DNA of 64,000 nucleotides from an uncultured Dehalococcoidia bacterium (GCA_951812825.1 OX638324.1:1051141-1115140); one strand, 5' to 3'; counted from the stretch's first letter, positions 7,128-59,273 are shown. The notes: generated by a model from the sequence alone, not told the origin. Numbers and translations: made by a program.

Positions 7128-7242
7128 GAGGGCGGTTCGCTAACCGCCCCTACGAAAGATGGGAGGGGGAGTTGGGGTGGATCAGCGGCGAGACCCTTCG
7201 GCTGCGCTCAGGGTGATCTTTCCCCCATCGAGGGGGAAGAGG
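7128..7242 (+). repeat. Intergenic repeat cluster: modules B, G-run, A (diverged), C (short)
   Basis: GAGGGCGGTTCGCTAACCGCCCCTACG (B), GCGAGACCCTTCGGCTGCGCTCAGGGTGATC (A variant), TTTCCCCCATCGAGGGGGAAGAGG (C core). Confidence 0.7.
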
Positions 7243-7312
7243 CTTGTTGGCGTCCTTGACAGGGTCATTCAAAGGTCTCCATCAGGGGGAAAGGGTGAAG
7301 GAGAGGAGGGGG

Positions 7313-7321
7313 TGGTATAAT
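7313..7321 (+). promoter_or_regulatory. Extended -10 promoter element TGgTATAAT upstream of selD
   Basis: Perfect TATAAT at 7316-7321, preceded by TG at 7313-7314. It lies 27 nt upstream of the selD ATG. No good -35 was seen. Confidence 0.4.
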
Positions 7322-7347
7322 CGCTGCATCTTGAGATTCGGGAGTGG

Positions 7348-8397
7348 ATGATGCAGGTAGAGAGCGTTCGATTAACTTCGCTTGCCAATTGCGCGGGTTG
7401 AGCTTCCAAGTTCAGTCATGAAGACCTGGTGCAGGTCTTGGAGAAGCTACCCACGTTCTCGGACCCCAACCTGCTGGTGGGGTTCGAGTCGGGGGACGAC
7501 GCGGCGGTATACAAGCTGAATGACCGGCAGGCGCTGATATTCACGGTGGATTTTTTCCCTCCTGTGGTGGACGACCCGTTCTCCTTCGGGGCGGTGGCGG
7601 CGGCAAACTCCTTCAGCGACGTGTACGCAATGGGTGGAACGCCTATCTGCGCGCTGAACATTGTGGGGTTTCCGGTGGACCTGCCCAAGGAGATACTGTC
7701 GGAGATTATGCTCGGGGGATATACGAAGGCACAGGAGGCGGGTTGCCTGATAGCAGGAGGGCACACGGTGGACGACCAGGAGCCGAAATACGGGCTGGCG
7801 GTGGTGGGGCTGGTTGAGCCAGACCTGCAGGTCACGAACGCAGGGGCTCAAGCAGGGGACGTGCTTGTGCTGACGAAGCCCCTGGGGACGGGGATCATCA
7901 CCACGGCGGGGAAGCAGGGAGTGGTGGATGCTCAGGTGCTGGAGGAGGGAGTGAGGATTATGTCCACGCTCAACGCGTCGGCGTCGAAGGCCATGATGAA
8001 GGTAGGAGTGAACTCGGCGACGGACGTGACGGGGTTCGGGCTGGTGGGGCACCTGCGTGGGATGATGGCGGCGAGCGGGACAACGGCAAGGGTTGAGTTC
8101 TCGCGGGTGCCGGTGATTGACGGAGCGTGGGAACTGCTGGAGTCAGGAGTTGCGCCGGGGGGTACCCATCGAAATCTGGAGGGAGTGGGGAGCCAGGTTG
8201 CGTGGGATGGGGAGATTACTGGGAATCAGAGGTTGCTGCTGTGCGACGCTCAGACGTCGGGAGGGCTGCTGATTTCGGCGCCTGAGGGGTGTAGGGACGA
8301 CCTGCTGAGGGAGCTGGAAGCCCAGGGGGTTGAGGGATCAGTAGTTATTGGGGAGGTCCAAGAGGCGGGGGACTATCCGATAGAGGTAACGCCCTAA
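7348..8397 (+). CDS. selD: Selenide, water dikinase (selenophosphate synthetase), with in-frame TGA (7399-7401) read as Sec
   Basis: The ORF track starts at GTG 7429. The frame is open back to ATG 7348 except for one TGA, giving MMQVESVRLTSLANCAGUASKFSHEDLVQVL. This aligns with E. coli SelD [21 protein letters not shown], with U at the Cys17 position and K at the Lys20 position. The rest is typical SelD (DDAAVY, VDFF, GGHTVDD). Confidence 0.85.
7421..7439 (+). promoter_or_regulatory. SECIS-like hairpin candidate downstream of the selD TGA
   Basis: AAGACC-TGGTGCA-GGTCTT forms a 6-bp stem with a 7-nt loop containing GGU. It starts 20 nt after the TGA. Confidence 0.45.
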
Positions 8398-8597
8398 CCA
8401 CCGCCTACGGGCCGGACTATCTCCACGACGTCGCCCTCGGAGAGGGTAATTTCTTGGAAGCTCTCTTTTTCGATAACCTCACCGTTGTAGCCAACAGCGA
8501 TGAACTGGGTGGAGATGTCGAGGCTCTCCAGGTAGTTGACCAGACCCGTAGGGGCGGAAAGTTCCTTGGGCTTGCCGTTTATGGTCAGGCGAATCAT
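8394..8597 (-). CDS. thiS: Sulfur-carrier protein ThiS
   Basis: MIRLTINGK...VEIVRPVGGG has the C-terminal GG. Its ATG overlaps the thiE stop (ATGA). The 76-aa track ORF is trimmed to Met10. Confidence 0.8.
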   Translation of the reverse strand: MIRLTINGKPKELSAPTGLVNYLESLDISTQFIAVGYNGEVIEKESFQEITLSEGDVVEIVRPVGGG

Positions 8598-10045: not shown

Positions 10046-10107
10046 GATGCGCCTCAGAAACCCGCAAGATAAGAGCAAATGGTGAAGGGCTGAGGTTGAG
10101 TGAACCA

Positions 10108-10200
10108 TGATTCCTACGCCGGCATTATCCGGTTCAGGTTCAAACGGTCGCCCTCCGAGAGGGCCTCTCAGCCTGTCCAACCAGGCTCCCGTGGGGTGTA
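10108..10200 (-). promoter_or_regulatory. TPP (THI-box) riboswitch
   Basis: The minus strand reads CACGGGAGCCTGG...GGCTGAGAGGCC...GACCGTTTGAACCTGAACCGGATAATGCCGGCGTAGGAATC, which contains the conserved CTGAGA and ACCTGA.C.GGATAATGCCGGCGTAGGAA blocks. Downstream, CCTCAG can pair with the thiG SD region CTGAGG. Confidence 0.85.
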
Positions 10201-10213
10201 TTTCAATGGAGAT

Positions 10214-11496: not shown

Positions 11497-11582
11497 GGAT
11501 TGGGGTGTGGTGTGGTGGAGGGGATGAGGGACAATCACCCCCATCCAAACCTTTCCCCTTCAGGGGGGAAGGGTGAAGGGGC
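11497..11582 (+). repeat. Intergenic repeat cluster: G-run plus module C
   Basis: GGATTGGGGTGTGGTGTGGTGGAGGGG, then ATCACCCCCATCCAAACCTTTCCCCTTCAGGGGGGAAGGGTGAAGGG. Confidence 0.7.
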
Positions 11583-15084: not shown

Positions 15085-15200
15085 TGTGCCCCCACATTCG
15101 CGTCGGTACGGGTAGGCTCTGGCGGGAATGACGGGAGAGTTAGATCCTTCGTCACTGTGCTGCGCCACGCTCAGGATGACGTGGGGGGTGTGGGGGGAGG
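15085..15200 (+). repeat. Intergenic repeat cluster: D' variant, D half, module A, G-run
   Basis: GTGCCCCCACATTCGCGTCGGTACGG, GGCTCTGGCGGGAATGACGGG, TAGATCCTTCGTCACTGTGCTGCGCCACGCTCAGGATGAC, GTGGGGGGTGTGGGGGGAGGG. Confidence 0.7.
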
Positions 15201-16401: not shown

Positions 16402-16708
16402 GGTTGCGGAGGGGTTTGGGGGAAAGGTTTTGAGGGGAAGGATATCAGGAAGGGGAGGGGGTTGGGAGTGGGGGTTGGGGATATTCACCCTCATCCCCCG
16501 CCTTGGCGGGGGCAGGCTCTGCGCGGGAATGGCGGTTATGACAACGTTTCCTTGCACGGGAACAAGAAGGGAGGGGCGGCGTTGCGGAGGCGATGGAGTG
16601 GGTTGGGAGTGGGGGAGCGGGCGGTTCGAGAACCGCCCCTGCGGGGGAGGGTTTGGGTGAAGGGGGATGGGTCCCCGCCTTCGCGAGGACAGGAGGAGGG
16701 GAGCGGCG
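16402..16708 (+). repeat. Large intergenic repeat cluster: G-runs, C variant, D half, D'' variant, B, D
   Basis: GGGGAGGGGGTTGGGAGTGGGGGTTGGGG; ATTCACCCTCATCCCCCGCCTTGGCGGGGGCAG; GCTCTGCGCGGGAATGGCGG; GTTTCCTTGCACGGGAACAAG; GAGCGGGCGGTTCGAGAACCGCCCCTGCGG; GGGTCCCCGCCTTCGCGAGGACAGG. Confidence 0.75.
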
Positions 16709-17670
16709 CTTATTCTCTCACAACATATAGTACAGGTTGTGTAGAATGATGGATGAGAAGAATAGCAATACGAACGATCATAGAGACATGGAAGGCAAAG
16801 GGAGAGAATCTATCGGCGACAGCTCGGGAACTGGGTATAGACCGGAGGACGGTAAAAAGGTGGGTGGACCGGGGACGACAACCCTGGGGATACGTTCGGT
16901 GGAAAGGGGTAGAGCGCCGGTCCACGGCGCCCAAGCGTCCCAGGCGGGCACTGGTGGGCGAAGCTGCCCTTTGGGTACGCAGATTAAGGGAAAGGACGGG
17001 CTTCTGCCGGGAGAAGCTGGCGGTCATAGCCCAAAGGGAGGGGGTAAAAGCATCGGCGTCTACCATTCACAGGTACCTGCTTCGGAAGGGTTTGATCCGG
17101 CCCAGCACCAAGAGACGCCGTCCCCGATACCAGAACGGTATGGTCATGAGGCCCAGTAACTGTCCAGGATTGGGCTATCTACAGATGGACGTGAAGTATG
17201 TTACGCCGGAGCTTTCCGGGTTGCCCTACACCTGCTACCTGTATGCGGCCCTGGACATCTCCACCCGCTACAAGGTGGGCCTCATTCTCCCCAAAGTGGA
17301 TGAGTCAAGTGCTCTCCTGGCTCTGTACCACGCTACCGGGAACCTGCCTTTCCCTGTGTGCTACGTGCAGACGGACAATGGCTTGGAGTTTCAGAGGCGG
17401 TTTCATGCCAAGTGCCAGGAGATCGGTGTGGAACACTTCTACATCCACAAGAGTTCTCCCAATGAGAACGCAGTGGTGGAGCGCAGCTTCCGCACCGACG
17501 AGGAGGAGTTCTTCTTCTGGCTGGAAAATCCTCCCCGTGACTATGGCCAACTGAACTCCTGGTACCAGAGCTTCCTCTACACCTACAATAACATCCGCCC
17601 TCACATGGGCATCAATATGCTTACTCCCAAGGAGGCTATCTCCCTGTACCTTAAGTCTTGAGAGAATAAG
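16709..17670 (+). mobile_element. IS481-family-like insertion sequence (copy 2) with 6-bp target-site duplication
   Basis: Inverted repeats of about 28 bp: CTTATTCTCTCA..AC.TA..GTACAGG at 16709 onward and its complement ending at 17670. They are flanked by direct GCGGCG (16703-16708 and 17671-17676). Confidence 0.8.
16753..17661 (+). CDS. IS481-like DDE (rve) transposase
   Basis: HTH ATARELGIDRRTVKRW. Catalytic blocks LQMDVKYV, VQTDNGLEF and PNENAVVERSFRT. The stop codon lies inside the right IR. Confidence 0.85.
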   Translation: MRRIAIRTIIETWKAKGENLSATARELGIDRRTVKRWVDRGRQPWGYVRWKGVERRSTAPKRPRRALVGEAALWVRRLRERTGFCREKLAVIAQREGVKASASTIHRYLLRKGLIRPSTKRRRPRYQNGMVMRPSNCPGLGYLQMDVKYVTPELSGLPYTCYLYAALDISTRYKVGLILPKVDESSALLALYHATGNLPFPVCYVQTDNGLEFQRRFHAKCQEIGVEHFYIHKSSPNENAVVERSFRTDEEEFFFWLENPPRDYGQLNSWYQSFLYTYNNIRPHMGINMLTPKEAISLYLKS

Positions 17671-19794: not shown

Positions 19795-19799
19795 GGTGG

Positions 19800-19844
19800 A
19801 TCACCCTCATTCCTCGCCTTCTCCCAACGAAGGAGAAGCGAATC
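19800..19844 (+). repeat. Intergenic repeat, module C variant
   Basis: ATCACCCTCATTCCTCGCCTTCTCCCAACGAAGGAGAAGCGAATC (hairpin CTTCTCC/GGAGAAG). Confidence 0.6.
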
Positions 19845-21982: not shown

Positions 21983-22118
21983 TTGTCTTTTTCTGCGTGA
22001 AGGATAGGGAATAATGATAACAGAGTTGGGAGCGGGGGGGCTATGGGGAGAGGGATTAGAAATGAAAGGAAGGGGGAGATTGCTATCTATGAACACCATC
22101 CTTGGACTGTTTCCGAAC

Positions 22119-22790
22119 CTACATGCCAATGCTGGATATGTCAACGTCCTGGGTGGTTATGTCCGTCAGAAACTCTCTGGGTTGTCCATTAAACGCAGCC
22201 TTGATAATGGTGTTGCTTCCGTTTTCTGTTTCAATGGGTAACGTGCTGTAGGGAATGCCTAGATGCTCCGCAGCCTCCAACAGGTACTTTATATCGAATG
22301 TTATGGCGCACCTGTAAATAACCTCTAGCATCCCTTTGTCAAGAACGATCATTGGAGGGGCCTTATCGCAACCAAGCAGTTCGGCAATATATTGGCCTGA
22401 CTTTTTATCGGGAAAGTACATTGCTGGACCAGCACCCACATATATTTGGCAGTGAGCCAAAGCGTTGCGGGCAAATATGAACGCCTCAAAGTCATTATTT
22501 GGTTCCTTGTTCCAACAAGGGACTATCTTGCTGAACTTCTTGATGAGTGCTCTGTCTCCTAACCGAAATAATCGATCTATTTTAGAACCTTGATATTTGG
22601 TTTGTGGCTCTTGATTCAACAGAACTCGGACGTATTGTGACCTTGCCGATGAAGTCGATTGATGTAATGCCACCATGGTTGCCATTGCGGTTACGTGCCT
22701 TCGAAGATTCACATAGATGATTCCCAAATCCTGATAGTAAGTGTTGTCTTCAAACTGGAATACAACTGGTGTTGCCTTTTCTAGTTCCAC
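22119..22790 (-). CDS. Hypothetical 223-aa protein with Rx4H (HEPN-like) motif, low GC
   Basis: A GTG start overlaps the stop of the upstream methyltransferase (TAGTG). Motif FIFARNALAHCQIY spans R137-H142 of the track ORF (nt 22452-22469). GC is about 45% (27/60 at 22261-22320), against about 63% in argS. Confidence 0.55.
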   Translation of the reverse strand: MELEKATPVVFQFEDNTYYQDLGIIYVNLRRHVTAMATMVALHQSTSSARSQYVRVLLNQEPQTKYQGSKIDRLFRLGDRALIKKFSKIVPCWNKEPNNDFEAFIFARNALAHCQIYVGAGPAMYFPDKKSGQYIAELLGCDKAPPMIVLDKGMLEVIYRCAITFDIKYLLEAAEHLGIPYSTLPIETENGSNTIIKAAFNGQPREFLTDITTQDVDISSIGM

Positions 22791-24220
22791 TATCGCCCTC
22801 CCCGTTGCCAGGCGGTGAGTTTGACGGCTAGGTCGTCCATGGTGCCGGTGGCTTTGAGGCTGTTGCAGTGGCGGCATAGGAGTTGGGAGTTTTCCAGGGT
22901 GTCGGGGCCGCCCTTGCTGCGAGGCCAGACGTGGTCGATTTCCAGCATGTGGAAGGCAAAGTGCTCACCGCAGCCGTTGCAGTCGCCTTCCTGCTGACCG
23001 TAGAGGGTATGCTTGATTTGTCGGCGGGGCATTTTGGTACCGTCGGAGCGGACGGGGGCGCTGGTGTGGACAGAAAGGGTACGGCCACCGATATCCAGGT
23101 TAGTCTGGGCCATGCGATAGCGTATTTGATTGACAGCATTGGGGGAAATGTCGATGCCGGCCCAGCGACGGCCCAGCTTTTCGGCGGCTATACAGGTGGT
23201 GGCGCAACCGCAGAAGGGGTCAAGCACTACGTCTCCTTCGTTGCTGCTAGCCACAATAATGCGCTCCATTAAGGCCAAGGGCTTTTGTGTGGGATACCCG
23301 GTACGTTCTTTAGAATGCGAGGATATCATTCGAATGTCTGCCCAAAGATTTTGGACTGGCTTGCCTTTCAATTCGTCTAAGAACCGCTTACGTCGAATCC
23401 TACCCGTTGGATTTGATGGGAAATGCAATCTGCCTTCAGCATCCCACTGTTCCATCTTAGCTTTCGATATGGCCCATCCCTTTTGTGGGGGAGGATATCC
23501 CTTGTATTCATAGATCAGGTTTGGCCGTAGGGCGGGATTTGCCAAGTTGTCCGTTCCATAACGGCGTCCATTATCGTCGATATATTTGAATGTACGCTTA
23601 ATGTAGTCCTGATATTGCGGGTCGTCCATGGTGTATTGGGTTTCGAATGAAGCTTCGGAGCTCTTGGTATAGAAGAGGATGGTGTCTGTTACAACGCCAT
23701 AACGCCTTGACTTATGGACCGCGCTAGACGCACCTTGTCGACGTTTCCATACAATTTCATTCATGAAGTTACCAAGCCCAAAGACACCGTCCAGCACTAG
23801 TCTCAGGTAACTGTTAGCCGTGGGGTCGCAGTGGAGATAGAGGCTGCCGCTGGGTTTGAGGATGCGGTGGAGTTCCACGAGCCTATCTGCCATCATCACG
23901 AGGTAGCTCATCATTCCCTTGCCATGCACCTTCCCTGCCGCTTCGATTACAGCGTAGACACCGGGATGGGTGTCTGCCAGCCGCCCCATTGCGGCGACGT
24001 CAAGGTCGGAGAGCGTCCAAGTGTCTTTGAAGGCGGCGCCGGCGGCCTTGCTGCCGATAGGGGCGGCGTAGTCGCGGTTGGAGTTGAAGGGTGGGTCGAG
24101 GTATATGAGGTCGACGCACTCGGAGTCGATGCCGGGGAGGATTTCCATGTTGTCGGCGGTCCAGATTGTGCGGTTGGCAAAGTTCATGGTGGTTCCTGAC
24201 GAGGATCGGTTCGTATTCAT
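22790..24220 (-). CDS. Beta-class (Mod-like, N6A/N4C family) DNA methyltransferase fused to a C-terminal HNH nuclease domain
   Basis: Motif IV LIYLDPPFNSN (nt 24086-24097) precedes motif I VLDPFCGCATT (23195-23227), which is the beta-class order. The C-terminus CNGCGEHFAFHMLEIDHVWPRSKGGPDTLENSQLLCRHCNSLK (22853-22984) is an HNH signature. An alternative start is Met12 (24187), which has an AGGA SD. Confidence 0.8.
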   Translation of the reverse strand: MNTNRSSSGTTMNFANRTIWTADNMEILPGIDSECVDLIYLDPPFNSNRDYAAPIGSKAAGAAFKDTWTLSDLDVAAMGRLADTHPGVYAVIEAAGKVHGKGMMSYLVMMADRLVELHRILKPSGSLYLHCDPTANSYLRLVLDGVFGLGNFMNEIVWKRRQGASSAVHKSRRYGVVTDTILFYTKSSEASFETQYTMDDPQYQDYIKRTFKYIDDNGRRYGTDNLANPALRPNLIYEYKGYPPPQKGWAISKAKMEQWDAEGRLHFPSNPTGRIRRKRFLDELKGKPVQNLWADIRMISSHSKERTGYPTQKPLALMERIIVASSNEGDVVLDPFCGCATTCIAAEKLGRRWAGIDISPNAVNQIRYRMAQTNLDIGGRTLSVHTSAPVRSDGTKMPRRQIKHTLYGQQEGDCNGCGEHFAFHMLEIDHVWPRSKGGPDTLENSQLLCRHCNSLKATGTMDDLAVKLTAWQRGGR

Positions 24221-24240: not shown

Positions 24241-24296
24241 ATGTGGGGGCTGGGGATGGGTACGCGGGAGCGAGCGGCTCGCGAGCCGCCCCTACC
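24241..24296 (+). repeat. Intergenic repeat cluster: G-run plus module B
   Basis: ATGTGGGGGCTGGGGATGGG, then GAGCGAGCGGCTCGCGAGCCGCCCCTACC. Confidence 0.7.
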
Positions 24297-24313
24297 AGAG
24301 GAGGGGAAAGGGA

Positions 24314-26815
24314 TCAGGCGACTTCTGCGGTGGCGGGGGTCTGGTAGCGGGCGAGTTCCTGGACCAGGGGTTGGTGGTCGGGGTGGGTGAGGTGGGGATC
24401 GCGGTGGAGGATGCGGGCGGCTTCGTTGCGGGCGCTTATCAGGATGTCGCGGTCGGCGAGGCGGGCCATTTTTAGGGTGGGGAGGCCGCTCTGACGGGTA
24501 CCGAAGAGGTCACCGGGGCCGCGGAGCTGGAGGTCGATTTCGGCGAGCTTGAAGCCGTCGTTGTGCTCTTCGATGGCTTCGAGGCGCTGGCGGGCGTAGT
24601 CGGAGGGGTCTTCGGCCAGGAGGAGGCAGTAGCTCTTGTGGGGGCCGCGCCCGACGCGTCCGCGGAACTGGTGAAGCTGGGCGAGGCCGAATCGGTCGGC
24701 GGACTCGACCATCATGACAGAGGCGTTGGGGACGTCTATGCCGACTTCGACGACGGGGGTGGAGACGAGGATATCGAGTTCGCGGTTGTGGAAGGCGGTC
24801 ATGACGACGTCCTTCTGGCGGGAGGGGAGGCGACCGTGGAGGAGGCCGACGCGGAGATCGGGGAAGATGTGCTGGCTGAGTCGTTCGTATTCCTGGGCGG
24901 CGGCTTTCGCTTCGGTGAGTTCGGACTCCTCGATGAGGGGGAAGATTATGAAGGCCTGGCGTCCTTCGTTCACCTGGTTTCTCAGAAATCCGTAGGCCCG
25001 GTTTCTTGCCTCTGGAGGGACGTGATGGGTGGAGATGGGGGTGCGGCCGGGGGGCATTTCGTCGATGGTGGAGATGTCGAGGTCGCCGTATAGAGTGAGG
25101 GCGAGGGTGCGGGGGATGGGGGTGGCGGACATGATGAGGACGTGGGGGGTTGTCTGGCTCTTGCCACGGAGGGCGGCGCGCTGCATGACGCCGAAACGGT
25201 GCTGTTCGTCGACGACGGAGAGGGCGAGGTTGGGGATCTGCATAGTCTGCTGGATGAGGGTGTGGGTGCCGATGATGATGTCCAGGTCGCCGTCGGCGGC
25301 GCGCTGCTGGAGGTTATCGCGGAGTCGCTTACGGGTGCTGCCGGTGACGAGTCCGATGGAGACGGGGGGGCCGTCGGGATAGATGGATGCGGAGACGAGG
25401 TTTTCTTCCTGGACTGGGTTATGGAGGCGGGACATGAGATCGCAGGCCGTCTTGAAGTGCTGTTCGGCAAGGACTTCGGTGGGGACCATGATGGTGCCCT
25501 GGAGGCCCATGGCGGCGACGGCGAGAAGGGCGGCGACGGCGACGACGGTCTTGCCGCTGCCGACTTCACCCTGGAGGAGACGGTTCATGGAAGGGACGCC
25601 TTCGGCCATGTCTGCGAGGGTCTCGTTGAGGCAGCGCTGCTGGGCGCCGGTGAGGGTGAAGGGGAGGGAATCCAGGAAGGTTTGGACGGCGGAGCCGGAA
25701 GCGTCTATGGGGGCGCCGCGGGCTTCGTCTTTCCACTGTCGGCGTCGTTGGAGGACGGAGATCTGGAGGAGGAGGAGTTCGTCGAAGGCGAGTCGGCTAC
25801 GGGCTTCTTCCCACTGGATCACGGAATTGGGGAAGTGGGCGTTGGAGACGGCCTTGGGCAGGGGCATGAGTTTGAGCCGGGTGAGGGTGTCGTTTGGGAG
25901 GAATTCCTGAATGCTTGGGGACCAGCGCCGGAGGGCGTTCCAGATGATGCGCCGGAGGGTGCGAGCATGGAGGTCCCTGGTGAGGGGATGGACGGGAAGG
26001 ACGCGACCGGCATATATGAGGGGATGCCCGTTCTTGAGGAGTTCGTATTCCGGGGACTCCATAACGAGGGAGCCGCCGAAGGTATCGACTTTCCCGCTGA
26101 GGGCAATTTTGCTGTTCGGCTTGAGCTGGCGGGCGAGGAATGTGTTGTTGAACCAGACGACGGAGAGATTTCCGGTCTCGTCGCCTACGATGGCGCGGGT
26201 GGCGGGTCTGCGCTGTCTTCCCAGCCTGACCCGGGAGGCTTCCCAAACGGTGGCGAAGATAGTTGTTTCCTGGCCAACTTTCAGGTCGGCGATTTTGGTG
26301 CGGTGGGAGTAGTCCTTCGGGTAACGGGGGAAGTGGTAGAGGAGGTCGCGGATGGTGTGGACCTCCAGACGAGCCAGCTTTTCGGAGGTCTTGGTGTCGA
26401 CGCCCCTGAGGTGGGTGACGGGTTTGTAGAGGGCATCGGGGTCGGGAGGGGGTGGTTTGGGCGGGGAGGATTGTTTCGACGGAGAGGGTTTTCGAGAGGG
26501 CTGGATTCCCGCCTTCGCGGGAATGACGGAGGGGGGCGGGGTCGACGATTCTGCGGTGGGGGATGAGTTCAGCAGGGAGAGGCAGGTGTCTACCCATTCA
26601 GCGCGCTGGTTGGGGGACATGCGAGAGTAGGGACGGGCGAGGAGTTTGTCGGCGTCGGCGGTGTTGGATAGGTGGGTGCGGAGTTGGGCATTCCAGCGGG
26701 TGAGGAAATCGTCAAGGCCGGAGGTGACGGCTTTGTTGTCGAACTTCCTTTGTCGTTCCAGTCGGAGGATGTTGCGGAAGGAGTTGAGCGGGTGGTTATC
26801 TCGGCGGGAGGCCAT
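24314..26815 (-). CDS. recG: ATP-dependent DNA helicase RecG (long N-terminal extension)
   Basis: Walker A GEVGSGKTVVA, DEQHRFGV, helicase C-terminal motifs QLHQFRGRVGRG, and TRG-motif region. Confidence 0.9.
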   Translation of the reverse strand: MASRRDNHPLNSFRNILRLERQRKFDNKAVTSGLDDFLTRWNAQLRTHLSNTADADKLLARPYSRMSPNQRAEWVDTCLSLLNSSPTAESSTPPPSVIPAKAGIQPSRKPSPSKQSSPPKPPPPDPDALYKPVTHLRGVDTKTSEKLARLEVHTIRDLLYHFPRYPKDYSHRTKIADLKVGQETTIFATVWEASRVRLGRQRRPATRAIVGDETGNLSVVWFNNTFLARQLKPNSKIALSGKVDTFGGSLVMESPEYELLKNGHPLIYAGRVLPVHPLTRDLHARTLRRIIWNALRRWSPSIQEFLPNDTLTRLKLMPLPKAVSNAHFPNSVIQWEEARSRLAFDELLLLQISVLQRRRQWKDEARGAPIDASGSAVQTFLDSLPFTLTGAQQRCLNETLADMAEGVPSMNRLLQGEVGSGKTVVAVAALLAVAAMGLQGTIMVPTEVLAEQHFKTACDLMSRLHNPVQEENLVSASIYPDGPPVSIGLVTGSTRKRLRDNLQQRAADGDLDIIIGTHTLIQQTMQIPNLALSVVDEQHRFGVMQRAALRGKSQTTPHVLIMSATPIPRTLALTLYGDLDISTIDEMPPGRTPISTHHVPPEARNRAYGFLRNQVNEGRQAFIIFPLIEESELTEAKAAAQEYERLSQHIFPDLRVGLLHGRLPSRQKDVVMTAFHNRELDILVSTPVVEVGIDVPNASVMMVESADRFGLAQLHQFRGRVGRGPHKSYCLLLAEDPSDYARQRLEAIEEHNDGFKLAEIDLQLRGPGDLFGTRQSGLPTLKMARLADRDILISARNEAARILHRDPHLTHPDHQPLVQELARYQTPATAEVA
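26503..26529 (+). repeat. Repeat module D located in-frame inside recG
   Basis: GGATTCCCGCCTTCGCGGGAATGACGG. Its reverse complement is translated as SVIPAKAGIQP within a Pro/Ser-rich linker of RecG. Confidence 0.8.
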
Positions 26816-40799: not shown

Positions 40800-40836
40800 G
40801 AGATTCTTCACTGCGCTTCGCTTCGTTCAGAATGAC
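40800..40836 (+). repeat. Intergenic repeat, module A
   Basis: GAGATTCTTCACTGCGCTTCGCTTCGTTCAGAATGAC. Confidence 0.75.
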
Positions 40837-40844
40837 ATGTTGGA

Positions 40845-42314: not shown

Positions 42315-42355
42315 GTCACCCCCATCCCAACCTTCCCCCATCCAGGGGTAAGGGG
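42315..42355 (+). repeat. Intergenic repeat, module C
   Basis: GTCACCCCCATCCCAACCTTCCCCCATCCAGGGGTAAGGGG. Confidence 0.75.
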
Positions 42356-42393
42356 TTAAATGGTATTTTTTGCTTCAATCAGCAATGGGAGTG

Positions 42394-43038: not shown

Positions 43039-43182
43039 TTTCCGTCCTGCGTGCGTGAGATTTGAGATTGCGGCTATTGTATGGGAGGAAATGGCGGATG
43101 GGTAGGGGGAGGGGGTAACGAGTGGGCCACCGCATCCGAAGGGGCCCGGACGCTTGTGAGGAATGGAGCGTAACAGGGCGAC

Positions 43183-43209
43183 GAGATTCATCGGCTTCGC
43201 ACAGAATGA
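43183..43209 (+). repeat. Intergenic repeat, module A (short variant)
   Basis: GAGATTCATCGGCTTCGCACAGAATGA. Confidence 0.6.
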
Positions 43210-43332
43210 AACGTGGGGGGTGGGCCTTGCTAGGGGGAGTTGCAGAGCCTATATTAGCGGCATGGTTTTTCTGACCCCATATACACGCATTTGCCGGCAG
43301 AGCAGCCCATGCGACGCCTTGACGGTTGCATC

Positions 43333-44760: not shown

Positions 44761-44832
44761 GGGGTGGATGCGTTGTCAGTAATCGCCGCATCTGATAGTA
44801 TTTCATTTCACTAACGAGCGGATAGGCAGGGC

Positions 44833-44859
44833 GAGATTCTTCGCTGCCCTCAGAATGAC
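44833..44859 (+). repeat. Intergenic repeat, module A (short variant)
   Basis: GAGATTCTTCGCTGCCCTCAGAATGAC. Confidence 0.7.
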
Positions 44860-44881
44860 GTATAAGGGAAAGGGATAGCAG

Positions 44882-50183: not shown

Positions 50184-50334
50184 TCTTCAAGACGCCTTTT
50201 GGTTGGTGGGGGTGATGTTAAGGGGATTTTAGCGCAGGGGGTACTGTTTGGCTACGAAGGGGGGAGGGGATTGGATTGAGTGTATAATGGAGGACGTTGG
50301 GGGAAGTCATCGAAAAGGCGGTTGAGCAAGCGGG

Positions 50335-50580
50335 ATGATTGTGAGAATACCCATAGTGTTGGAGCCTCAGCCTGAAGGGGGGTATACGGTTACCTCCCCG
50401 TTGCTGCCAGAGCTGATTACGGAGGGAGATACGGTGGGAGAGGCGCTGGCAAACGTTGAGGATGCGTTTGCGGCGGTGGCAGAGATTTACGAGGATAGGA
50501 GGCAGCCCTTGCCGCGTAGCATCTACGTGGACGAGGCCAATGGTCCACTATCCGTTGAGGCAATCGTCTCCCTGCCTTGA
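50335..50580 (+). CDS. hicB: HicB-family antitoxin
   Basis: IPIVLEPQPEGGYTVTSPLLPELITEGDTVGEALANVEDA (UPF0150/HicB fold pattern). It overlaps hicA. Confidence 0.7.
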   Translation: MIVRIPIVLEPQPEGGYTVTSPLLPELITEGDTVGEALANVEDAFAAVAEIYEDRRQPLPRSIYVDEANGPLSVEAIVSLP

Positions 50581-50789
50581 GATATAGAGATGCTGCCCGC
50601 AAGCTAACCCAGCTTGAGTGTTATGAGATTCCGAGGCGTGGCAGGGGGTCTCATAGAAAGTGGTTCAATCCTGGAACGCAAAGATATGCCGTATTGCCTG
50701 ACTGGGGAGGGCGGGATTTAAGAATGGGAACCTTGCGTTCAGCTATCAGGCAACTGGGCATAGGATGGGAAGAGTTTCAGCAATCTTGA
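50577..50789 (+). CDS. hicA: HicA-family mRNA interferase toxin
   Basis: ARKLTQLECYEIPRRGRGSHRKWFNP. The TTG start overlaps the hicB stop (TTGA). Confidence 0.7.
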   Translation: MRYRDAARKLTQLECYEIPRRGRGSHRKWFNPGTQRYAVLPDWGGRDLRMGTLRSAIRQLGIGWEEFQQS

Positions 50790-50847
50790 GAGAAGTGCAG
50801 GCTGGTGATGTAGTTTTGATACCTTAGAGAGGTATCGCTACTGCAAC

Positions 50848-50881
50848 GAGATTCTTCGTCGAGGGGCCTCCTCAGAATGAC
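50848..50881 (+). repeat. Intergenic repeat, module A
   Basis: GAGATTCTTCGTCGAGGGGCCTCCTCAGAATGAC. Confidence 0.8.
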
Positions 50882-50896
50882 ATGAGGGAGCAGGGG

Positions 50897-52216: not shown

Positions 52217-53306
<1,090 letters not shown>

Positions 53307-53335
53307 TTTGAGGAAAGTGACGGGTCGGGCATGGG

Positions 53336-54538: not shown

Positions 54539-54641
54539 GGGGCCTCCTGGGTTTAGGATGGGGTAATTATATGAGGGGGTTGGGTTTGGCGCAAATGGGA
54601 TATGGGCTGCGACCTGGAATAGATGTGGCAGTGAACAAGAT

Positions 54642-54667
54642 GGATTCCCGCCTCCGCGGGAACACGG
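54642..54667 (+). repeat. Intergenic repeat, module D
   Basis: GGATTCCCGCCTCCGCGGGAACACGG. Confidence 0.7.
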
Positions 54668-54766
54668 AGGGGTGAGGGGGTGCTGCGCAAATGGAAAGGA
54701 GAGTTGTTGTAAGTTGGCGGGGAGATTTGCTATATTTGGTACATCATTTGCGAATAGGAGCGGCGT

Positions 54767-54955
54767 ATGACATTTGTTGTCCTCCATGAAGGAGAAGCGC
54801 CGGAGAGCCTGATTAACCGGTTCCGTTCCGGGGTACAGCGTTCCGGCATATTAAGGGAGATCAAGAGACGCCGGTATTTCCGGTCGAAGAGCCAGAAGGC
54901 GCGAGAGGCGGCGCAGCGAGCAGCGCGGCGAGCCCGGCGTCGTCGCCGATACTAA
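54767..54955 (+). CDS. rpsU: 30S ribosomal protein S21
   Basis: ESLINRFRSGVQRSGILREIKRRRYFRSKSQKAREA, basic C-terminus, 62 aa. Confidence 0.8.
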   Translation: MTFVVLHEGEAPESLINRFRSGVQRSGILREIKRRRYFRSKSQKAREAAQRAARRARRRRRY

Positions 54956-55016
54956 GAATGATTCCAGGCGGCGTGCCTTTATTGGTCTGGGGCGCCGCTG
55001 CTGAATTCACAGACCA

Positions 55017-55712: not shown

Positions 55713-56611
55713 AGGGGTTGCCAGTAGCGCCGGGTTTCGCCGGCGATGATGCGACCGAAGCCTGGGGCGGGGAAGTGGCCGGCGGCGACGATGATGCCCT
55801 GATCCGCAAGTTTCCTTAGAGTTTCCCGACGCGTTTTGATGCCAAGCTCAGGTAATACGTCTGCCTTGGTGTTCCAGTGGGGAACCTGGATCTGGAGGGG
55901 GAGGTGGGCGACGTCGCCGAGGACGAAGGCGCGATTTCCCTGGGAGGTGACGGCGAGGCTCTGATGGCCGGGGGTGTGGCCCGGGGTGGGGACGATGGCG
56001 ATTTCGTCAGTGACGTTGAGGTCTCCATCAACCAGGCGGATGTTGTCCAGCTTCTGCATGAGCCTGCCGACGGGTAGGGAATCTCGGAAGACTTCTACTG
56101 CCGGAGGGTAGGGGCTTTCACCCCCACCCTGCCCTTCTCCATTGACGTGGGAAGGGAGTTGGGGATCGAAGAGCAGGTCCCAGTCGGCCTGGGGGACGAT
56201 GTACTCCGCGTTGGGGAAGGTGGGGCAAACTGAGCCGTCGGGGAGGGGGTTGGGGAGCCAGCCGATGTGGTCGAAGTGGAGGTGGGTGATGACGACGGTG
56301 TCGATGGTATTCGGGTCTATGCCGCCCTGGCGCATTTCGCTGAGGAGGTTGCCGGCGGCACCGCCCGCCTGGGCAACGGGGGTGGGGCCAAGTCCGGCGT
56401 CGACGAGGATCCGCCTTCCCTGGGACTCGATGAGGAAGCAGGCGACGTTGATCCCGCCGTTTACCTGGCAGTCGTCGTCCACCTGCCCCTCGAACTGCTG
56501 AAAGGCTCCTACGGACTTATGCGGGAAAAAATCGCAGGCGTCGACGGCCATGAGGCAATCGGATATGGAGAGGATGTTTACGTTGCCGACGTTTATCTTC
56601 TGGATGTTCAT
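55709..56611 (-). CDS. MBL-fold metallo-hydrolase
   Basis: VVITHLHFDHIGW (HxHxDH)...TPGHTPGH. GGAGG SD. Start trimmed to Met22. Confidence 0.8.
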   Translation of the reverse strand: MNIQKINVGNVNILSISDCLMAVDACDFFPHKSVGAFQQFEGQVDDDCQVNGGINVACFLIESQGRRILVDAGLGPTPVAQAGGAAGNLLSEMRQGGIDPNTIDTVVITHLHFDHIGWLPNPLPDGSVCPTFPNAEYIVPQADWDLLFDPQLPSHVNGEGQGGGESPYPPAVEVFRDSLPVGRLMQKLDNIRLVDGDLNVTDEIAIVPTPGHTPGHQSLAVTSQGNRAFVLGDVAHLPLQIQVPHWNTKADVLPELGIKTRRETLRKLADQGIIVAAGHFPAPGFGRIIAGETRRYWQPL

Positions 56612-56765
56612 GGGCCTCCGGGCGGTGATGACAGGAGTTGGGGCGGGTTCGTGGATGGGGGAATTATAGCCCATCGGAGGAGGGGATAAGGGGGTGGATT
56701 TCTTTGACAGTGGGTGGGGTATGGTTTAAGTTAGCAGGGCCTGAATTCCGAGGGGGAGGCGGCCA

Positions 56766-57866
56766 ATGCGCGGACGAGTGGTTGTTTGCAAGGAGCATAA
56801 CCAGCCCTTTGTGATTGAGGAGTATGAGGTGCCGGAGCTGGAGCCCGGGGCGATTCTGCTGCGGATGGTGCAGTCCGGCATCTGCGGGTCGGACCTGCAC
56901 TACTGGCGGGGGGACCAGGCGCAGGCGCCGCTTCCACCAACGGGGCGGGTGATGGGGCACGAGGGGTACGGCGTGGTGCACAGCTTGGGCAGGGGAGCGG
57001 ACAGGGACTCGCTGGGGCGGCGGCTGAGAGAGGGCGACCGGGTGGTGTATACGGCGATATTCCCGTGCAATCGGTGTCACATGTGTTTGAAGTCGATGGG
57101 GAACCTGTGCGTAAACCGACCGTTTCCAGCGGCGGGGGACTATCCGTACTTCACGGGGACTTACGCCGATTATCTGTACTTGCCGCCGGGCCATCCGATA
57201 TTCCTGGCGCCGGACGGGATATCGGACGAGGTGCTGGCTCCGGTTAACTGCGCCATGGGAACGGTGACGCAGGGGTTGATTTCGGCGGGGGCGGAAGCCG
57301 GGGACTGGGTGGTGGTTCAGGGCGCGGGAGGATTGGGGCTGACGGCTACGGCGGTGGCGAAGGATATGGGCGCTCACGGGGTGATTGTGCTGGACCGATT
57401 GGAGAACCGGCTGGAGCTGGCGCGGGAGTTCGGGGCGGACTACGTTATCAACATCAACGAATACGATACGCCTGAAGCGCGGATCGAGCGGGTGTGGGAG
57501 CTGACGCGAGGCAGAGGTGCGGACGTGGTGATGGAGCTTGTGGGCCTGGCGGACCTGCTCGTGGAAGGGGTGGAGATGCTGGGGAACGGGGGGACCTTCG
57601 TGGAGATTGGGGACATTGTGCCGGGGCGGACGGTGGCGTTGGACCCTTCGACGCTGCTGAAGGGGAAGCGGATTGTCGGGTCTCTGATGTATCCCGCGCA
57701 TCTGATACCGAGGATTCTGGACTTTCTGGAGCGGAATTTGGAGACGCGTCCATTCCACAAGATAGTTTCGCACAAGTTCAAGCTGGAAGACGTGAACAAG
57801 GCGTTCCCGCAGGCGGAGTGGAATGCGAGGCAGACGGAGGTTACGCGGGCGGTACTGGCGCCGTAA
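56766..57866 (+). CDS. Zinc-dependent alcohol dehydrogenase family (MDR) oxidoreductase
   Basis: GICGSDLHYWRG...GHEGYG...CNRCHMC...VVQGAGGLG. Confidence 0.8.
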   Translation: MRGRVVVCKEHNQPFVIEEYEVPELEPGAILLRMVQSGICGSDLHYWRGDQAQAPLPPTGRVMGHEGYGVVHSLGRGADRDSLGRRLREGDRVVYTAIFPCNRCHMCLKSMGNLCVNRPFPAAGDYPYFTGTYADYLYLPPGHPIFLAPDGISDEVLAPVNCAMGTVTQGLISAGAEAGDWVVVQGAGGLGLTATAVAKDMGAHGVIVLDRLENRLELAREFGADYVININEYDTPEARIERVWELTRGRGADVVMELVGLADLLVEGVEMLGNGGTFVEIGDIVPGRTVALDPSTLLKGKRIVGSLMYPAHLIPRILDFLERNLETRPFHKIVSHKFKLEDVNKAFPQAEWNARQTEVTRAVLAP

Positions 57867-57903
57867 TTCGGAGCTTGGCCGAACCTGGACGGAGGAGGAG
57901 TAG

Positions 57904-59145
57904 ATGAAGTTCGACATATTTTGCCTGCCAACGGTGCCGGGGACCCTGGAGGACAGAGCAGCATTGCGTCCCATCGGCCGGAATAACGAACGGTACCAGC
58001 AGATGATAGACGAGCTGCGAAGCATTGCGGTGATGGCAGACGAGGTGGGGTTTGACGCCTTCTCCACGACGGAGCACCACATGCACTCGGAGGGGTTCGA
58101 GGCGTCGGTGGCGCCGCTGCTGCTGTACGCGGACCTGGCGGCGAGGACAAAGCGGATAAAGTTTGCGCCGTTGGGGCTGGTGCTGCCTTCGTGGGACCCG
58201 ATCCGGTGCGCGGAGGAGATAGCGATTCTGGACCATTTGACGAGAGGGAGGGTGATTGCGGGGTTCGCCCGCGGGTACCAGGACCGGTGGACGAACGTGT
58301 TGGGGCAGCAGTACCGGGTATCGGCGGCGACGATGGACGGGTCCGAGGTGGACTTGATGAATCGGGAGGTGTTCGAGGAGGTGTTCGACATCATCAAGCT
58401 GGCGTGGACCCAGGACGCCATCGAGTACAACGGGAAGTATTACCAGATTCCGGTGCCCTACAAGGAAGGGATCAGCCACTGGCCGCCGACGGAGTGGACG
58501 AATACTTATGGCGCGCCAGGAGAGTTGGACGAGGAGGGTATCATCCGCCGAGTGAGCGTGATTCCCAAGCCGTACCAGGACCCGCATCCACCGTTGTGGC
58601 AGCCCTTCGCGGTGAGCGAGACGACGATACGCCGGACGGCGCAGCGGGGGATTGTGCCGTGGATATTGACATCGCTGCCGGAGAGTTTTGCGAAGCTGTG
58701 CGTGGCGTACCAGGAGGAGGCGGCGCAGCACGGAAGGCAGTTGGGGGTGGGGGAGAGTGTGGGCGCCGTCCGCGCCATCTATTTTGGGGACAGCTATGAG
58801 GAGGCCTTTGAACTTGGGTACAAGAGCACGGGCATAGGCTTCCATCACTACTTCGGGGAGTTTGGGTTCGTGGAGCCGTTCCGGAACCCGGGGGAGGAGG
58901 GGCCATCGCCACTGAAGTTCAAGACGGAGCTGGAGACGTATCAGCGGATGGTGGACCACAGCTACGTGTTGTGCGGAACGGTGGACCAGGTGAAGGCAAA
59001 GATCGAGTCTCTGGCGACGTGTCACGGTGAGGGGGAGTTGGAGTGGTTCGGGTGGAGCATGGGCCAGGGATTTATGCCGCTGGACGAGGTGCGGCGTCAG
59101 ATTGAGCTTTTCGCCACGCACATCATGCCGGAGTTCAAGGCGTAG
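57904..59145 (+). CDS. LLM-class (luciferase-like) flavin/F420-dependent oxidoreductase
   Basis: MKFDIF...GFDAFSTTEHHMHSEG...PLLLYADLAARTKRIKF. GGAGGAGG SD. Confidence 0.7.
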   Translation: MKFDIFCLPTVPGTLEDRAALRPIGRNNERYQQMIDELRSIAVMADEVGFDAFSTTEHHMHSEGFEASVAPLLLYADLAARTKRIKFAPLGLVLPSWDPIRCAEEIAILDHLTRGRVIAGFARGYQDRWTNVLGQQYRVSAATMDGSEVDLMNREVFEEVFDIIKLAWTQDAIEYNGKYYQIPVPYKEGISHWPPTEWTNTYGAPGELDEEGIIRRVSVIPKPYQDPHPPLWQPFAVSETTIRRTAQRGIVPWILTSLPESFAKLCVAYQEEAAQHGRQLGVGESVGAVRAIYFGDSYEEAFELGYKSTGIGFHHYFGEFGFVEPFRNPGEEGPSPLKFKTELETYQRMVDHSYVLCGTVDQVKAKIESLATCHGEGELEWFGWSMGQGFMPLDEVRRQIELFATHIMPEFKA

Positions 59146-59200
59146 GAGAGGGGATTCAGCGCACATCGGGCGCATTTGGGGGAATCACGAAGTGGGAGGA

Positions 59201-59273
59201 GCACCCCCATCCTAACCTTCCCCCATCAAGGGGGAAGGGATAAGATGGATTCCGGCTTTCGCCGGAGTGACGG
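59201..59273 (+). repeat. Intergenic repeat cluster: module C plus module D variant
   Basis: GCACCCCCATCCTAACCTTCCCCCATCAAGGGGGAAGGG (59201-59239); GGATTCCGGCTTTCGCCGGAGTGACGG (59247-59273). Confidence 0.8.

Follow-up and report, generated by a model that had tools for sequence, protein, structure and literature searches.

Four families of short hairpin repeats, dispersed through the intergenic gaps of a 64,000-nt window of Dehalococcoidia DNA, all lie in one orientation. They follow the locally G-rich strand regardless of gene direction, despite gain and loss of modules between species. The strict orientation suggests a process that targets single-stranded DNA (ssDNA) at the replication fork. 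We favor orientation-dependent persistence of the repeats, to which we assign a probability of roughly 40%; strand-specific insertion is its chief competitor. The kinds of module are already known; their polarity is what is new. The window (the whole stretch analyzed, positions 1–64000, read on the + strand) has an extreme strand asymmetry by base counts (G 24062 versus C 14699, T>A), and the host is probably a sponge-associated member of the Chloroflexota, with a chromosome of 2.47 Mb whose extreme GC skew is of the replication type.

Thirty-three module copies share one orientation

We searched both strands of the window with iterated nhmmer profiles seeded with the copies listed in a first-pass annotation. 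The searches gave 33 solid copies (A, 10; B, 6; C, 7; D, 10) and a few further weak ones. All 33 are in the + orientation (two-sided p ~2e-10; p ~8e-6 with the 18 occupied gaps as the sole independent units), and no credible reverse copy was found on either strand of the window up to E ≤10. The single orientation described by the first-pass annotation therefore holds, and reverse copies in comparable numbers do not occur in the window. Apart from weak fragments at E ≤10 (best E 0.064), almost all within coding sequence, the minus-strand matches are due to the palindromic cores of C and B copies already counted.

The listed copies of A (10/10), B (6/6) and C (7/7) were regained by nhmmer, all on +, as were 8 of the 12 listed D copies; the other four (15088, 15114, 16516 and 16540) are weak. 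The pairs 15088 + 15114 and 16493 + 16516 each read as one element with a long loop insertion, and 16540 is a poor hairpin. Two D copies absent from the list, at 33543 and 43120, emerged from the profile search. Literal consensus strings recover only part of the set (three exact matches of A, four copies of C, one of D, and two of B at ≤3 mismatches), and the literal strings of A, B, C and D have zero matches in shuffled sequence.

The modules belong to known classes of REP-like hairpins

The four modules can be classed from their sequences as REP-class hairpin repeats of several tag families, which together form BIME/NIME-like mosaics in ~43% of the intergenic gaps. D is the CGTC/GTCAT-tagged REP/dRS3/NTS hairpin. 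In the copy at 26494–26530, the minus strand of 26501–26528 (CGTCATTCCCGCGAAGGCGGGAATCCAG) matches the published NTS consensus perfectly and in sense, and in the copy at 59243–59272 the published SRM pattern fits 59245–59272, likewise in minus-strand sense. Four of the six base pairs of the D hairpin are preserved via double changes. Read depth at 26494–26530 spikes in run X1 (~1447 versus ~11). The remaining solid copies are at 16662–16692, 38323–38356 (CCGGT/ACCGG stem) and 54638–54668 (degenerate head), with variants at 26972–27011 and 38390–38428 (both with a GATAGAGAGTGGGT leader), 30036–30072, 33543–33574 and 43120–43150. The last was identified by profile, sequence reading and fold, and all others by nhmmer, joined by pattern matches at 26494 and 59243. 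The element at 15086–15136, the one listed as 15088 and 15114, reads directly as D-type with a long loop insertion (ATTCGC..GCGGGAATGACGG) and a weak fold.

A is a related GTCAT-tagged element whose stem is split and whose loop insert varies. In that stem a tandem G.A mismatch is conserved on the GTCAT strand, with pyrimidine mismatches on the opposite strand, as read from the sequence. Copies are at 7185–7216 (ACCCT/AGGGT stem, tag on the minus strand; nhmmer E 1e-5), 15139–15182 (ATCCT/AGGAT stem; E 3e-8), 26870–26909 (lineage-specific interior TCGCGGAGCCTCC, kept in strains L001 and L003; E 5e-11), 27026–27069 (exact pattern match; E 2e-10), 30090–30130 (tail ATACC replacing ATGAC; E 6e-11), 33487–33524 (exact match, in a block missing from strains L001 and L002), 40795–40838 (E 2e-9), 43178–43211 (degenerate; E 2e-7), 44830–44862 (short loop, near the cross-phylum consensus; E 2e-8) and 50843–50883 (exact match). 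A was found in at least 120 stretches across most bacterial phyla, and at three loci of other phyla (L094, L108 and L072) it directly adjoins small GIY-YIG (Ssn-like) genes.

B is a GTAG-tagged REP. At 7125–7159 the minus strand reads CGTAGGGGCGGTT..AACCGCCC (DNA hairpin −10.1 kcal/mol), and the copy at 16614–16647 has the tag GCAG; both were detected by pattern and nhmmer. Those at 24267–24302, 26921–26956 (GGGGCGACC/GGTCGCCCC stem; −12.6 kcal/mol), 33424–33459 (decayed) and 53206–53239 were detected by nhmmer. C is a G/C hairpin with a CACCC foot. It occurs at 11533–11574 (CACCCCCATCC foot and CCTTYCCCC/GGGGRAAGG hairpin), 42315–42357 and, as the hairpin alone overlapping the end of A, 7206–7245 (all by pattern and nhmmer), at 19798–19843 (a variant) and 53264–53309 (nhmmer), and at 59198–59241 (exact match). 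At 16483–16536 a C-like foot and hairpin are joined to a D-type 3' half (GCGGGAATGGCGG), probably as a single long-loop element (E 7e-4, weak). A C-like stretch at 56117–56160, within a metallo-beta-lactamase (MBL)-fold gene, is doubtful; the stretch was in the seed set, which makes its score circular.

Both the CGTC and the GTAG tag families of REPs have been described, and the CGTC/GTCAT-tagged class (dRS3/NTS), reported without an associated transposase (PMC3733652), is tied to the ssDNA-specific GIY-YIG nuclease family Ssn rather than to RAYT (PMC11893778, PMC3733652). The REP/RAYT-like label of the first-pass annotation thus suits B only, A and D belonging with the Ssn-linked class. Like the published NTS/SRM elements (Chenal et al., 2025, PMC11893778; the same as dRS3 and CGTC-1 REP), of which 26501–26528 is a perfect NTS and 59245–59272 an SRM fit, A and D have a GTCAT head, a hairpin and a GAATC tail, and the window copies are intergenic and abundant. 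Most of them nevertheless fail the published SRM pattern, and A differs by a 2x2 mismatch and by loop inserts that reach 24 nt. Published NTS elements, whose role with Ssn is to limit natural transformation, are mostly head-to-head dimers or clusters in both orientations, whereas the window has single copies with one polarity to the skew (PMC11893778).

B shares with the GTAG REPs, REPINs and BIMEs of RAYT systems (PMC3733652, PMC2817692, PMC8266576) a GC-rich palindrome of 20–30 nt with a 5' GTAG foot on one strand, an intergenic location and mixing with other repeats in mosaics. BIMEs and REPINs, however, hold REPs in alternating or inverted arrangement, whereas B is always single and one way round; gap occupancy in the window has no bias to convergent or unidirectional gaps, and a RAYT gene was not found there. 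The "modular", shuffled character first described for the repeats matches NIME/BIME-type mosaics, in which several short repeat families occur in variable order per gap. Those mosaics center on inverted repeats, unlike the strictly co-oriented modules here, and the NIME/BIME literature examined does not describe repeats strictly co-oriented with the replication strand.

Orientation ignores genes and follows the G-rich strand

Of the 42 intergenic gaps that measure 40 nt or more, 18 (43%) hold modules, fewer than the "most gene gaps", at least 19, of the first-pass annotation. On a gene map checked with Pfam and gene calls in relatives, occupied gaps are distributed over all arrangements (tandem+ 4/12, tandem− 5/13, convergent 4/8, divergent 5/9), and module orientation is independent of both gene direction and gap type. 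The G-run tracts noted between modules are real: intergenic runs of four or more number 156 for G against 27 for C.

GC skew in the window is +0.24 overall, and at third codon positions +0.37 in + genes and +0.54 in − genes. Every copy tallied (60 of 60) falls on whichever strand is locally G-rich. The tally takes in the window, four unlinked loci from its lineage and the corresponding region of a 3.06-Mb relative, and it spans contigs and loci with positive and with negative skew. The 5'-tagged strand of A, B and D is always the C-rich one. Module–module junctions from elsewhere in the same sample, among those shown, are all joined on one strand, and A is on the G-rich strand in 17/17 cases at high-skew Acidobacteriota loci. 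Low-skew relatives, and other low-skew genomes, have inverted pairs of modules. A DDE-type IS481-like element, of a kind that transposes as double-stranded DNA, occurs in both orientations relative to the skew.

Copy positions are stable across strains 97–98% identical. In orthologous gaps of the sister species (the 3.06-Mb relative) the module sets differ yet the polarity is constant, which indicates that polarity is re-imposed at each gain and so fits a strand-specific, replication-linked process. That much of the process proposed by the first-pass annotation stands; its RAYT assignment fails for A and D. Mutational survival as the cause of the orientation was rejected, since by sequence counts the observed orientation puts more C on the C-losing strand.

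Alternative explanations

Base bias or misassembly could in principle mimic the pattern, and same-skew shuffles do yield slightly more weak + than − matches at E ≤10 (5:0 with the A profile, 3:0 with the D profile). We regard such an artifact as extremely improbable: genuine copies have E values from 1e-5 to 1e-12, shuffles are without pattern matches, the sister species has modules too, and identical motifs are published and found across phyla. Misassembly, a possibility raised at the outset, is refuted by copies at identical places in independent metagenome assemblies. The hairpins might instead act in transcripts as terminators, mRNA stabilizers or small RNAs. REPs of other bacteria are mostly downstream of genes and thought to work in RNA (PMC3733652), and several copies here lie right past stop codons (e.g. 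19798, 40795 and 42315). This reading is already disfavored and we hold it to be very unlikely, because identical orientation beside + and − genes means that half of the transcripts would bear the complement; divergent (promoter) gaps contain modules, G-runs rather than T-runs follow the hairpins, and no Rfam family was matched. The same features bear out the original view that these are not simple terminators. Coverage was zero in two RNA runs. A host-selected, fork-direction-dependent function of polar DNA elements (primosome or SSB loading, KOPS-like signals, protection of G-rich template) would account for strict polarity to skew in two unrelated phyla, for equally polar surrounding G-runs and G-quadruplex motifs (33 on +, 0 on −) and for positions kept among close strains. 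It would, however, require the recruitment of four unrelated sequence families, which are freely exchanged, lost or absent per gap between species (24/42 gaps are empty), occur as inverted pairs in low-skew genomes and on inspection, with no formal test, have no evident regularity of spacing; we consider it improbable.

A more serious contender, if still rather unlikely in our estimate, is single-strand transfer of non-autonomous hairpins into ssDNA at the fork, by which they would land one way relative to fork movement, as happens with IS200/IS605 and has been suggested for REP/RAYT. The gains made independently in two species share a single polarity, the replication-linked orientation bias of IS200/IS605 is caused by its need for ssDNA (PMC3971601, PMC6006769), and dedicated Y1 transposase classes exist in Acidobacteria and other phyla (PMC3733652, PMC6006769). 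Elements such as IS608 and ISDra2 resemble the modules in having hairpins read as ssDNA on one strand and an orientation coupled to the fork, but each is a complete element that has two different ends and encodes a transposase, and their bias, though strong, is statistical, against the absolute polarity (60/60) seen here (PMC3971601, PMC6006769). The sign is also opposite: the active hairpin strand of IS608 ends on the template of the lagging strand, the G-rich sequence, and the model would place the tags opposite to the C-rich strand on which A, B and D have them, if G-rich is leading. The slight gene excess on the C-rich strand would fit insertion if C-rich is in fact leading. Against insertion, too, no transposase was found, the A and D class is reported without one, and positions are stable among close strains.

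A proposed explanation: orientation-dependent persistence at the replication fork

Orientation-dependent persistence would proceed as follows. If the G- and T-rich strand is read as leading-strand sequence, its parental copy would be the lagging-strand template, single-stranded at every fork passage. A tagged strand on that template would fold and be cut or excised by a cognate ssDNA enzyme, and the copy would be lost; on the leading-strand template it would seldom be single-stranded, and the copy would persist. Repeated gain and orientation-dependent loss would yield a strictly polar population. In published work the tagged strand is the one read by the ssDNA-specific enzymes Ssn and RAYT. 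Unusually long-lived ssDNA on the lagging-strand template might underlie both the extreme skew, through cytosine deamination, and the strict polarity.

Leading strands generally have G>C and T>A, and our strand assignment derives solely from this rule. A conventional skew switch is present at the dnaA loci of two other Chloroflexota. About 56% of coding bases are on the C-rich strand (a tally over gene calls in sampled lineage DNA), and coding density thus gives no support to the G-rich strand as leading. Several findings count against persistence. Neither an Ssn nor a RAYT gene was found within the 64-kb window, sampled DNA of the lineage has no Ssn gene, and its sole GIY-YIG protein (253 residues, several domains) is no typical Ssn. 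Many D copies have lost the head (GTCAT), which may disqualify them as substrates, the asymmetric foot of C is on the strand opposite to the tags of A, B and D, and DNA hairpin energies do not differ between strands. Selection of this kind cannot be universal, given that both orientations are tolerated in Neisseria and in many genomes of low skew.

The attC arrays of sedentary chromosomal integrons follow the same logic as persistence (Loot et al., 2017, PMC5371416): these hairpin sites, with one strand alone reactive as ssDNA, are co-oriented with the reactive strand within the leading-strand template, and the array is stabilized. They form one contiguous array with integrase and cassettes, whereas the modules are dispersed genome-wide, in several families, without either.

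Effect on gene prediction

False N-terminal extensions of predicted ORFs had been attributed to the modules. They are real for icd, mdh and yhhQ, and also for recG and argJ; the extensions of thiG and rpe bypass modules. The probable source of such extensions is a scarcity of stop codons on the C-rich minus strand of the gaps.

Module copies in the window share one orientation

We searched the window for the four short intergenic hairpin modules (A, B, C and D) named in the first-pass annotation. Literal matching of its four consensus strings recovered only some of the copies, and shuffled sequence gave zero matches to any of the four. Profiles seeded with the copies listed in that annotation and iterated with nhmmer over both strands of the window matched 10 A, 6 B, 8 C and 9 D copies, all on the + strand; the few minus-strand matches all fall on palindromic cores of copies already counted on +. 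Two extra D copies (33543 and 43120) were spotted by eye. With weak or double-counted entries removed (15088/15114, 16493/16516, 16540 and the intragenic 56117), 33 solid copies were counted in the window; 15088/15114 and 16493/16516 each look like a single element with a long loop. The profile searches of both strands yielded no credible reverse-oriented copy up to E ≤ 10, bearing out the original observation that all detected copies are co-oriented on the + strand.

The window carries ordinary housekeeping genes on both strands (checked by Pfam and by gene calls in related contigs). Modules were held by 18 of the 42 gaps of at least 40 nt, so that their placement in 'most gaps' was overstated. 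Occupancy was 4/12 for tandem + gaps, 5/13 for tandem − gaps, 4/8 for convergent gaps and 5/9 for divergent gaps. Because all four gap types are occupied, module orientation and location are independent of transcription, and the claim that orientation is unrelated to the direction of the flanking genes holds over the 42 gaps.

Module orientation follows the G-rich strand

The window has a G+C content of 60.6%, with 24,062 G against 14,699 C on the + strand. The GC skew of this strand is +0.24 overall and positive in every 2-kb bin. It reaches +0.37 at third codon positions of + genes, +0.54 at those of − genes and +0.29 in intergenic DNA; T also exceeds A. This is an unusually large mutational asymmetry of the replication type, far above the ~2.5% that SkewDB gives as typical (PMC8941118), and the skew of the window lineage is among the strongest GC skews known to us. 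G-quadruplex-type motifs (four runs of three or more G) number 33 on the + strand, 12 of them intergenic, and zero on the − strand, and runs of at least five G outnumber runs of at least five C in the window by 235 to 20. By our own tally from gene calls, coding density tilts slightly to the C-rich strand.

The window sequence occurs in sequencing runs whose label is either sponge metagenome or a host name in code. Three metagenome contigs (L001–L003), 97–98% identical to the window, have the same modules in the same places, except that one B+A+D block is missing in two strains. This block (32975–33589), which comprises a DUF1971/TehB-like gene and modules B, A and D, is carried by the window and L003 and is missing in L001 and L002. 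The same region of a 3.06-Mb relative (L133; genes 79–87% identical) lies in the reverse direction, with a skew of −0.22, and all 17 of its modules are on the G-rich strand. So are the seven modules of three unlinked contigs of the lineage (L129–L131; skews −0.21, −0.18 and +0.24) and the five of a further unlinked locus (L137; skew −0.18). Pooling the window with the lineage loci gives 60 copies at E ≤ 0.01, every one of them on the G-rich strand. The same gaps are filled in L133 and in the window, but module sets and orders differ and some gaps are filled in one species only. Contigs of run X1, in which the window is almost complete, lend further support: they contain many module-module junctions that stem from other places in the sample, and in every junction shown the modules join on the same strand.

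Copies of an IS481-like DDE element, by contrast, occur on either strand: the C-rich one in the window and in L137, the G-rich one in another compared locus, L135. The polarity of the modules is independent of transcription, tied to the G-rich strand and maintained through turnover, and it is common to several repeat families and not to a dsDNA transposon. The window copy of this multi-copy IS (transposase at 5833–6861, − strand) belongs to a cluster of 17 members at 90% identity, three of them on the source contig, and its sequence flips the skew locally.

Searches with the IS proteins P0279 and P0283 added two loci to those known from the window lineage. A third IS query, P0048, led to five loci of a 2.5-Mb Chloroflexota, its dnaA among them; this genome is no proxy for the lineage because it has low skew and almost no modules. 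The dnaA loci of two other Chloroflexota show a conventional skew switch, and the compared genomes L138 and L139 are of low skew. A search with DnaA from L124, a low-skew Chloroflexota, placed no DnaA of the window lineage among its best 120 matches.

Modules A and D resemble targets of small GIY-YIG nucleases

Module D was compared with the published Neisseria Transformation Sequence (NTS), CGTCATTCCCGCGMAVGCGGGAATCYRG, and with the degenerate pattern of the Ssn-related motif (SRM). The minus strand of the D copy at 26501–26528 reads CGTCATTCCCGCGAAGGCGGGAATCCAG, a perfect NTS match, and the copy at 59245–59272 (minus strand) fits the SRM pattern; shuffled controls gave 0.19 and 0.43 matches per strand. 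The remaining D copies and all A copies in the window do not fit the published NTS/SRM pattern. The modules nonetheless have the organization of this class, a hairpin core with a non-palindromic 5' GTCAT flank that gives it an orientation, and the full GTCAT head is kept in about 4 of 12 D copies, the others being degenerate. Four of the six predicted pairs of the D stem are retained through changes on both sides (19 D copies), and the predicted hairpin is the conserved feature of the modules. The NTS, which includes the dRS3 repeat, and the CGTC-1 REP family are one and the same element (PMC3733652). The small GIY-YIG nuclease SsnA binds the NTS and cleaves just upstream, requiring ssDNA and acting on the tagged strand alone (PMC11893778); the description of Ssn nucleases, the readers of this class, dates only from 2025.

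Most D copies of L133 have the head GGGAAAAACGG (minus strand CGTTTTTCCC) and not GGGAATGACGG, and by this signature an altered-tag D subfamily was evidently amplified in the sister species. In run X1, contig depth rises to ~1447 at 26002–26668 and 143 at 33339–34005 over a background of ~11. The higher value falls at the canonical NTS, whose core is therefore present at roughly 100 or more genome equivalents, to which other taxa may contribute.

Module A reads GTCATYCTGAG..CGAAGRATC on the minus strand and has the GTCAT head and a GAATC tail in common with D; the + strand ends in ATGAC in 8 of the 10 window copies. A tandem G.A mismatch is conserved on the GTCAT strand of the stem, the loop tolerates inserts of 5 to 24 nt, and the stem varies among ATTCT/AGAAT, ATCCT/AGGAT and ACCCT/AGGGT. 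Next to the IS end in the window, a 40-nt unit is present in 2.1 tandem copies at 95% identity (6961–7045), and this array and the ~50 nt that follow (to 7100) contain four short CATTGC(A/G)TGACGG-type motifs resembling the GTCAT/ATGAC tags of A and D.

A scan of one genome per species gave at least 120 stretches with A. Those listed come from Chloroflexota, Acidobacteriota, Nitrospirota, Omnitrophota, candidate-phyla-radiation groups, Bacteroidota, Bacillota, Proteobacteria, Cyanobacteria and others. Small GIY-YIG proteins are encoded in 4 of the at least 120 listed stretches (8 kb each), and in three of the four (L094, L108 and L072) A directly adjoins the gene, which encodes 87–91 residues and has A 16–136 nt away. 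In L094, A stands on both sides at 16 to 31 nt; in L108 it is also on both sides, and in L072 it is 74 nt upstream. The ssn genes flanked by motifs of the SRM class are small single-domain GIY-YIG genes (cd10448). Because A flanks small GIY-YIG genes in these loci, it is in practice probably an Ssn-related motif, outside the published pattern.

The DNA sampled from the window lineage showed neither an Ssn nor a RAYT gene, and its sole GIY-YIG protein is an atypical one of 253 residues (L137:7498–8259). This protein combines a GIY-YIG domain (Pfam E 8e-11) with an N-terminal part rich in cysteine and a C-terminus that is hydrophobic. Its gene is set in a patch of higher AT content, and 310 nt downstream of it is a D copy, a hairpin with the CGTC tag. 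A metagenome scan with a lineage-specific A variant matched only four contigs.

Modules B and C and other element classes

On the minus strand, B begins with a GTAG foot in four copies and with GCAG or ACAG in two, followed by a GC-rich palindrome; hairpin energies range from −4 to −12.6 kcal/mol. A 5' GTAG foot with a GC-rich palindrome defines the GTAG-tagged REPs associated with RAYT transposases (PMC3733652), and B conforms to this class (GTAG or a close variant, imperfect palindrome, 20–40 nt). REPs are often paired in inverted orientation as REPINs or BIMEs, whereas B always stands without an inverted partner in the window and in L133. A Pfam scan of 38 window ORFs found no RAYT (Y1 HUH transposase) gene. 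In module C, the + strand shows a CACCCCCATCC foot and then a hairpin with the arms CCTTCCCCC and GGGGGAAGG; C was matched to no named family.

Elements of the IS200/IS605 family are bounded by distinct left and right hairpins, whereas the modules are single hairpins of 25–45 nt in variable combinations; the two distinct subterminal hairpins of such elements, or of MITEs derived from them, were not found. Intrinsic terminators were ruled out, since G-runs and not T-runs lie 3' of the hairpins, divergent gaps are occupied and orientation is gene-independent. At gathering score, Rfam 15 matched two tRNAs and a TPP riboswitch in the window and no module family, and relaxing the threshold to E ≤ 1 over 26400–27100 gave nothing relevant. 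Two RNA runs with the host label had zero coverage.

The polarity recurs in high-skew Acidobacteriota

Among the listed stretches with A, those of high skew are Acidobacteriota (Granulicella, Bryocella and relatives) of both skew signs, and there all 17 A copies are on the G-rich strand. In low-skew Acidobacteriota and in one low-skew Chloroflexota, A copies form inverted pairs whose GTCAT tags point outward; in the high-skew genomes only the pair half on the G-rich strand was found. In other phyla, A orientation follows no rule among the matches listed (63 one way and 50 the other). The inverted, REPIN-like pairs (L105, L017, L036, L062, L067 and L138) span ~55–160 nt from start to start; the two L138 copies are about 130 nt apart.

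Origin of the polarity

By general rule, the G- and T-rich strand has the leading-strand sequence. Its parental copy would be the lagging-strand template, exposed as ssDNA. The orientation bias relative to the G-rich strand is absolute, with the tagged strands of A, B and D on the C-rich strand; if the G-rich strand is leading, these tagged strands would lie on the leading-strand template. The attC sites of stable chromosomal integrons likewise have their reactive strand kept off the lagging-strand template (PMC5371416). Strand-specific insertion of the IS200/IS605 kind predicts the opposite, an active strand on the lagging-strand template (PMC3971601, PMC6006769). Because the arrangement would, on this reading, be that of attC and the reverse of the IS200/IS605 prediction, we favor orientation-dependent persistence, by which copies with the tagged strand on the lagging-strand template would be lost and those with it on the leading-strand template kept, and give it a probability of roughly 0.4. 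Strand-specific insertion ranks second, as a less likely but still serious cause, and recruitment of the repeats to a host function ranks third and is improbable.

Several other explanations were rejected. An RNA function is at odds with the lack of T-runs, the lack of an Rfam family and the gene-independent orientation. A strand difference in hairpin stability arising from G.T wobble pairs fails because in each of the four families the two strands have the same mean ΔG. Mutational survival fails because the observed orientation gives more C to the strand that is losing C, and an artefact because independent assemblies agree. Orientation-dependent persistence has its own weak points: the leading strand of the lineage is taken from the general rule, coding density is tilted slightly to the C-rich strand, the enzymes of the Ssn and RAYT kinds went unseen and many D heads are degenerate.

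More speculatively, lineages with long-lived ssDNA on the lagging-strand template may purge from it hairpins targeted by ssDNA enzymes, leaving strictly polar repeats of several families. The hairpins purged would be targets of Ssn- and RAYT-type enzymes, and only copies whose reactive strand lies on the leading-strand template would survive, genome-wide and in multiple families. The same long-lived ssDNA would show as extreme GC skew, such as is seen in a sponge-associated Chloroflexota (the window lineage) and, independently, in Granulicella-like Acidobacteriota. If so, Ssn- and RAYT-type enzymes would act at replication forks of the host chromosome, beyond incoming DNA, and repeat polarity together with skew magnitude would be a readout of how much ssDNA uncultured bacteria expose.

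Few non-coding repeats of bacteria are commoner than hairpins of the REP, dRS3 and NTS types, and the repeat families and their mosaic arrangement are already known. Two features appear to be undescribed, namely the A variant outside the published SRM pattern and a strict polarity to replication that several families share and that goes with extreme skew in two phyla. Full-text literature searches returned no report of REP or NTS polarity with replication, of the A variant or of extreme skew in sponge Chloroflexota, which is not proof of absence. A lineage with several strictly polar families and strong skew is a natural experiment that ties repeats to ssDNA at the fork. Genome-wide, orientation is predicted to flip at the origin and terminus, and polarity to scale with skew across genomes; repeat orientation can also aid in orienting contigs of such genomes relative to replication.

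Annotation and other features of the window

In annotation, ORFs are systematically over-extended at the N-terminus and spurious peptides arise, probably owing to the repeats and to the C-rich sequence on the minus strand of the gaps. The long thiG extension, first ascribed to a module, instead passes through a TPP riboswitch (10093–10202, − strand) upstream of thiG-thiE and contains no repeat module. Small genes absent from long-ORF lists include rpmB, rpsU and a hicB/hicA-like pair (29708–29902, 54768–54956 and 50330–50789, all +); one public gene call places a spurious 119-residue minus-strand ORF over rpmB.

A second IS (16709–17670) has 28-bp terminal inverted repeats (82% complementary) and a 302-residue rve-domain transposase whose closest named homologues are from Dehalococcoidia and Chloroflexi. 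A low-GC island at 22100–24200, where G+C is 51% and skew is weak, codes for an N6/N4 DNA methylase with a fused HNH nuclease and is probably acquired restriction-modification-like DNA; L001 and L003 have different genes in its place.
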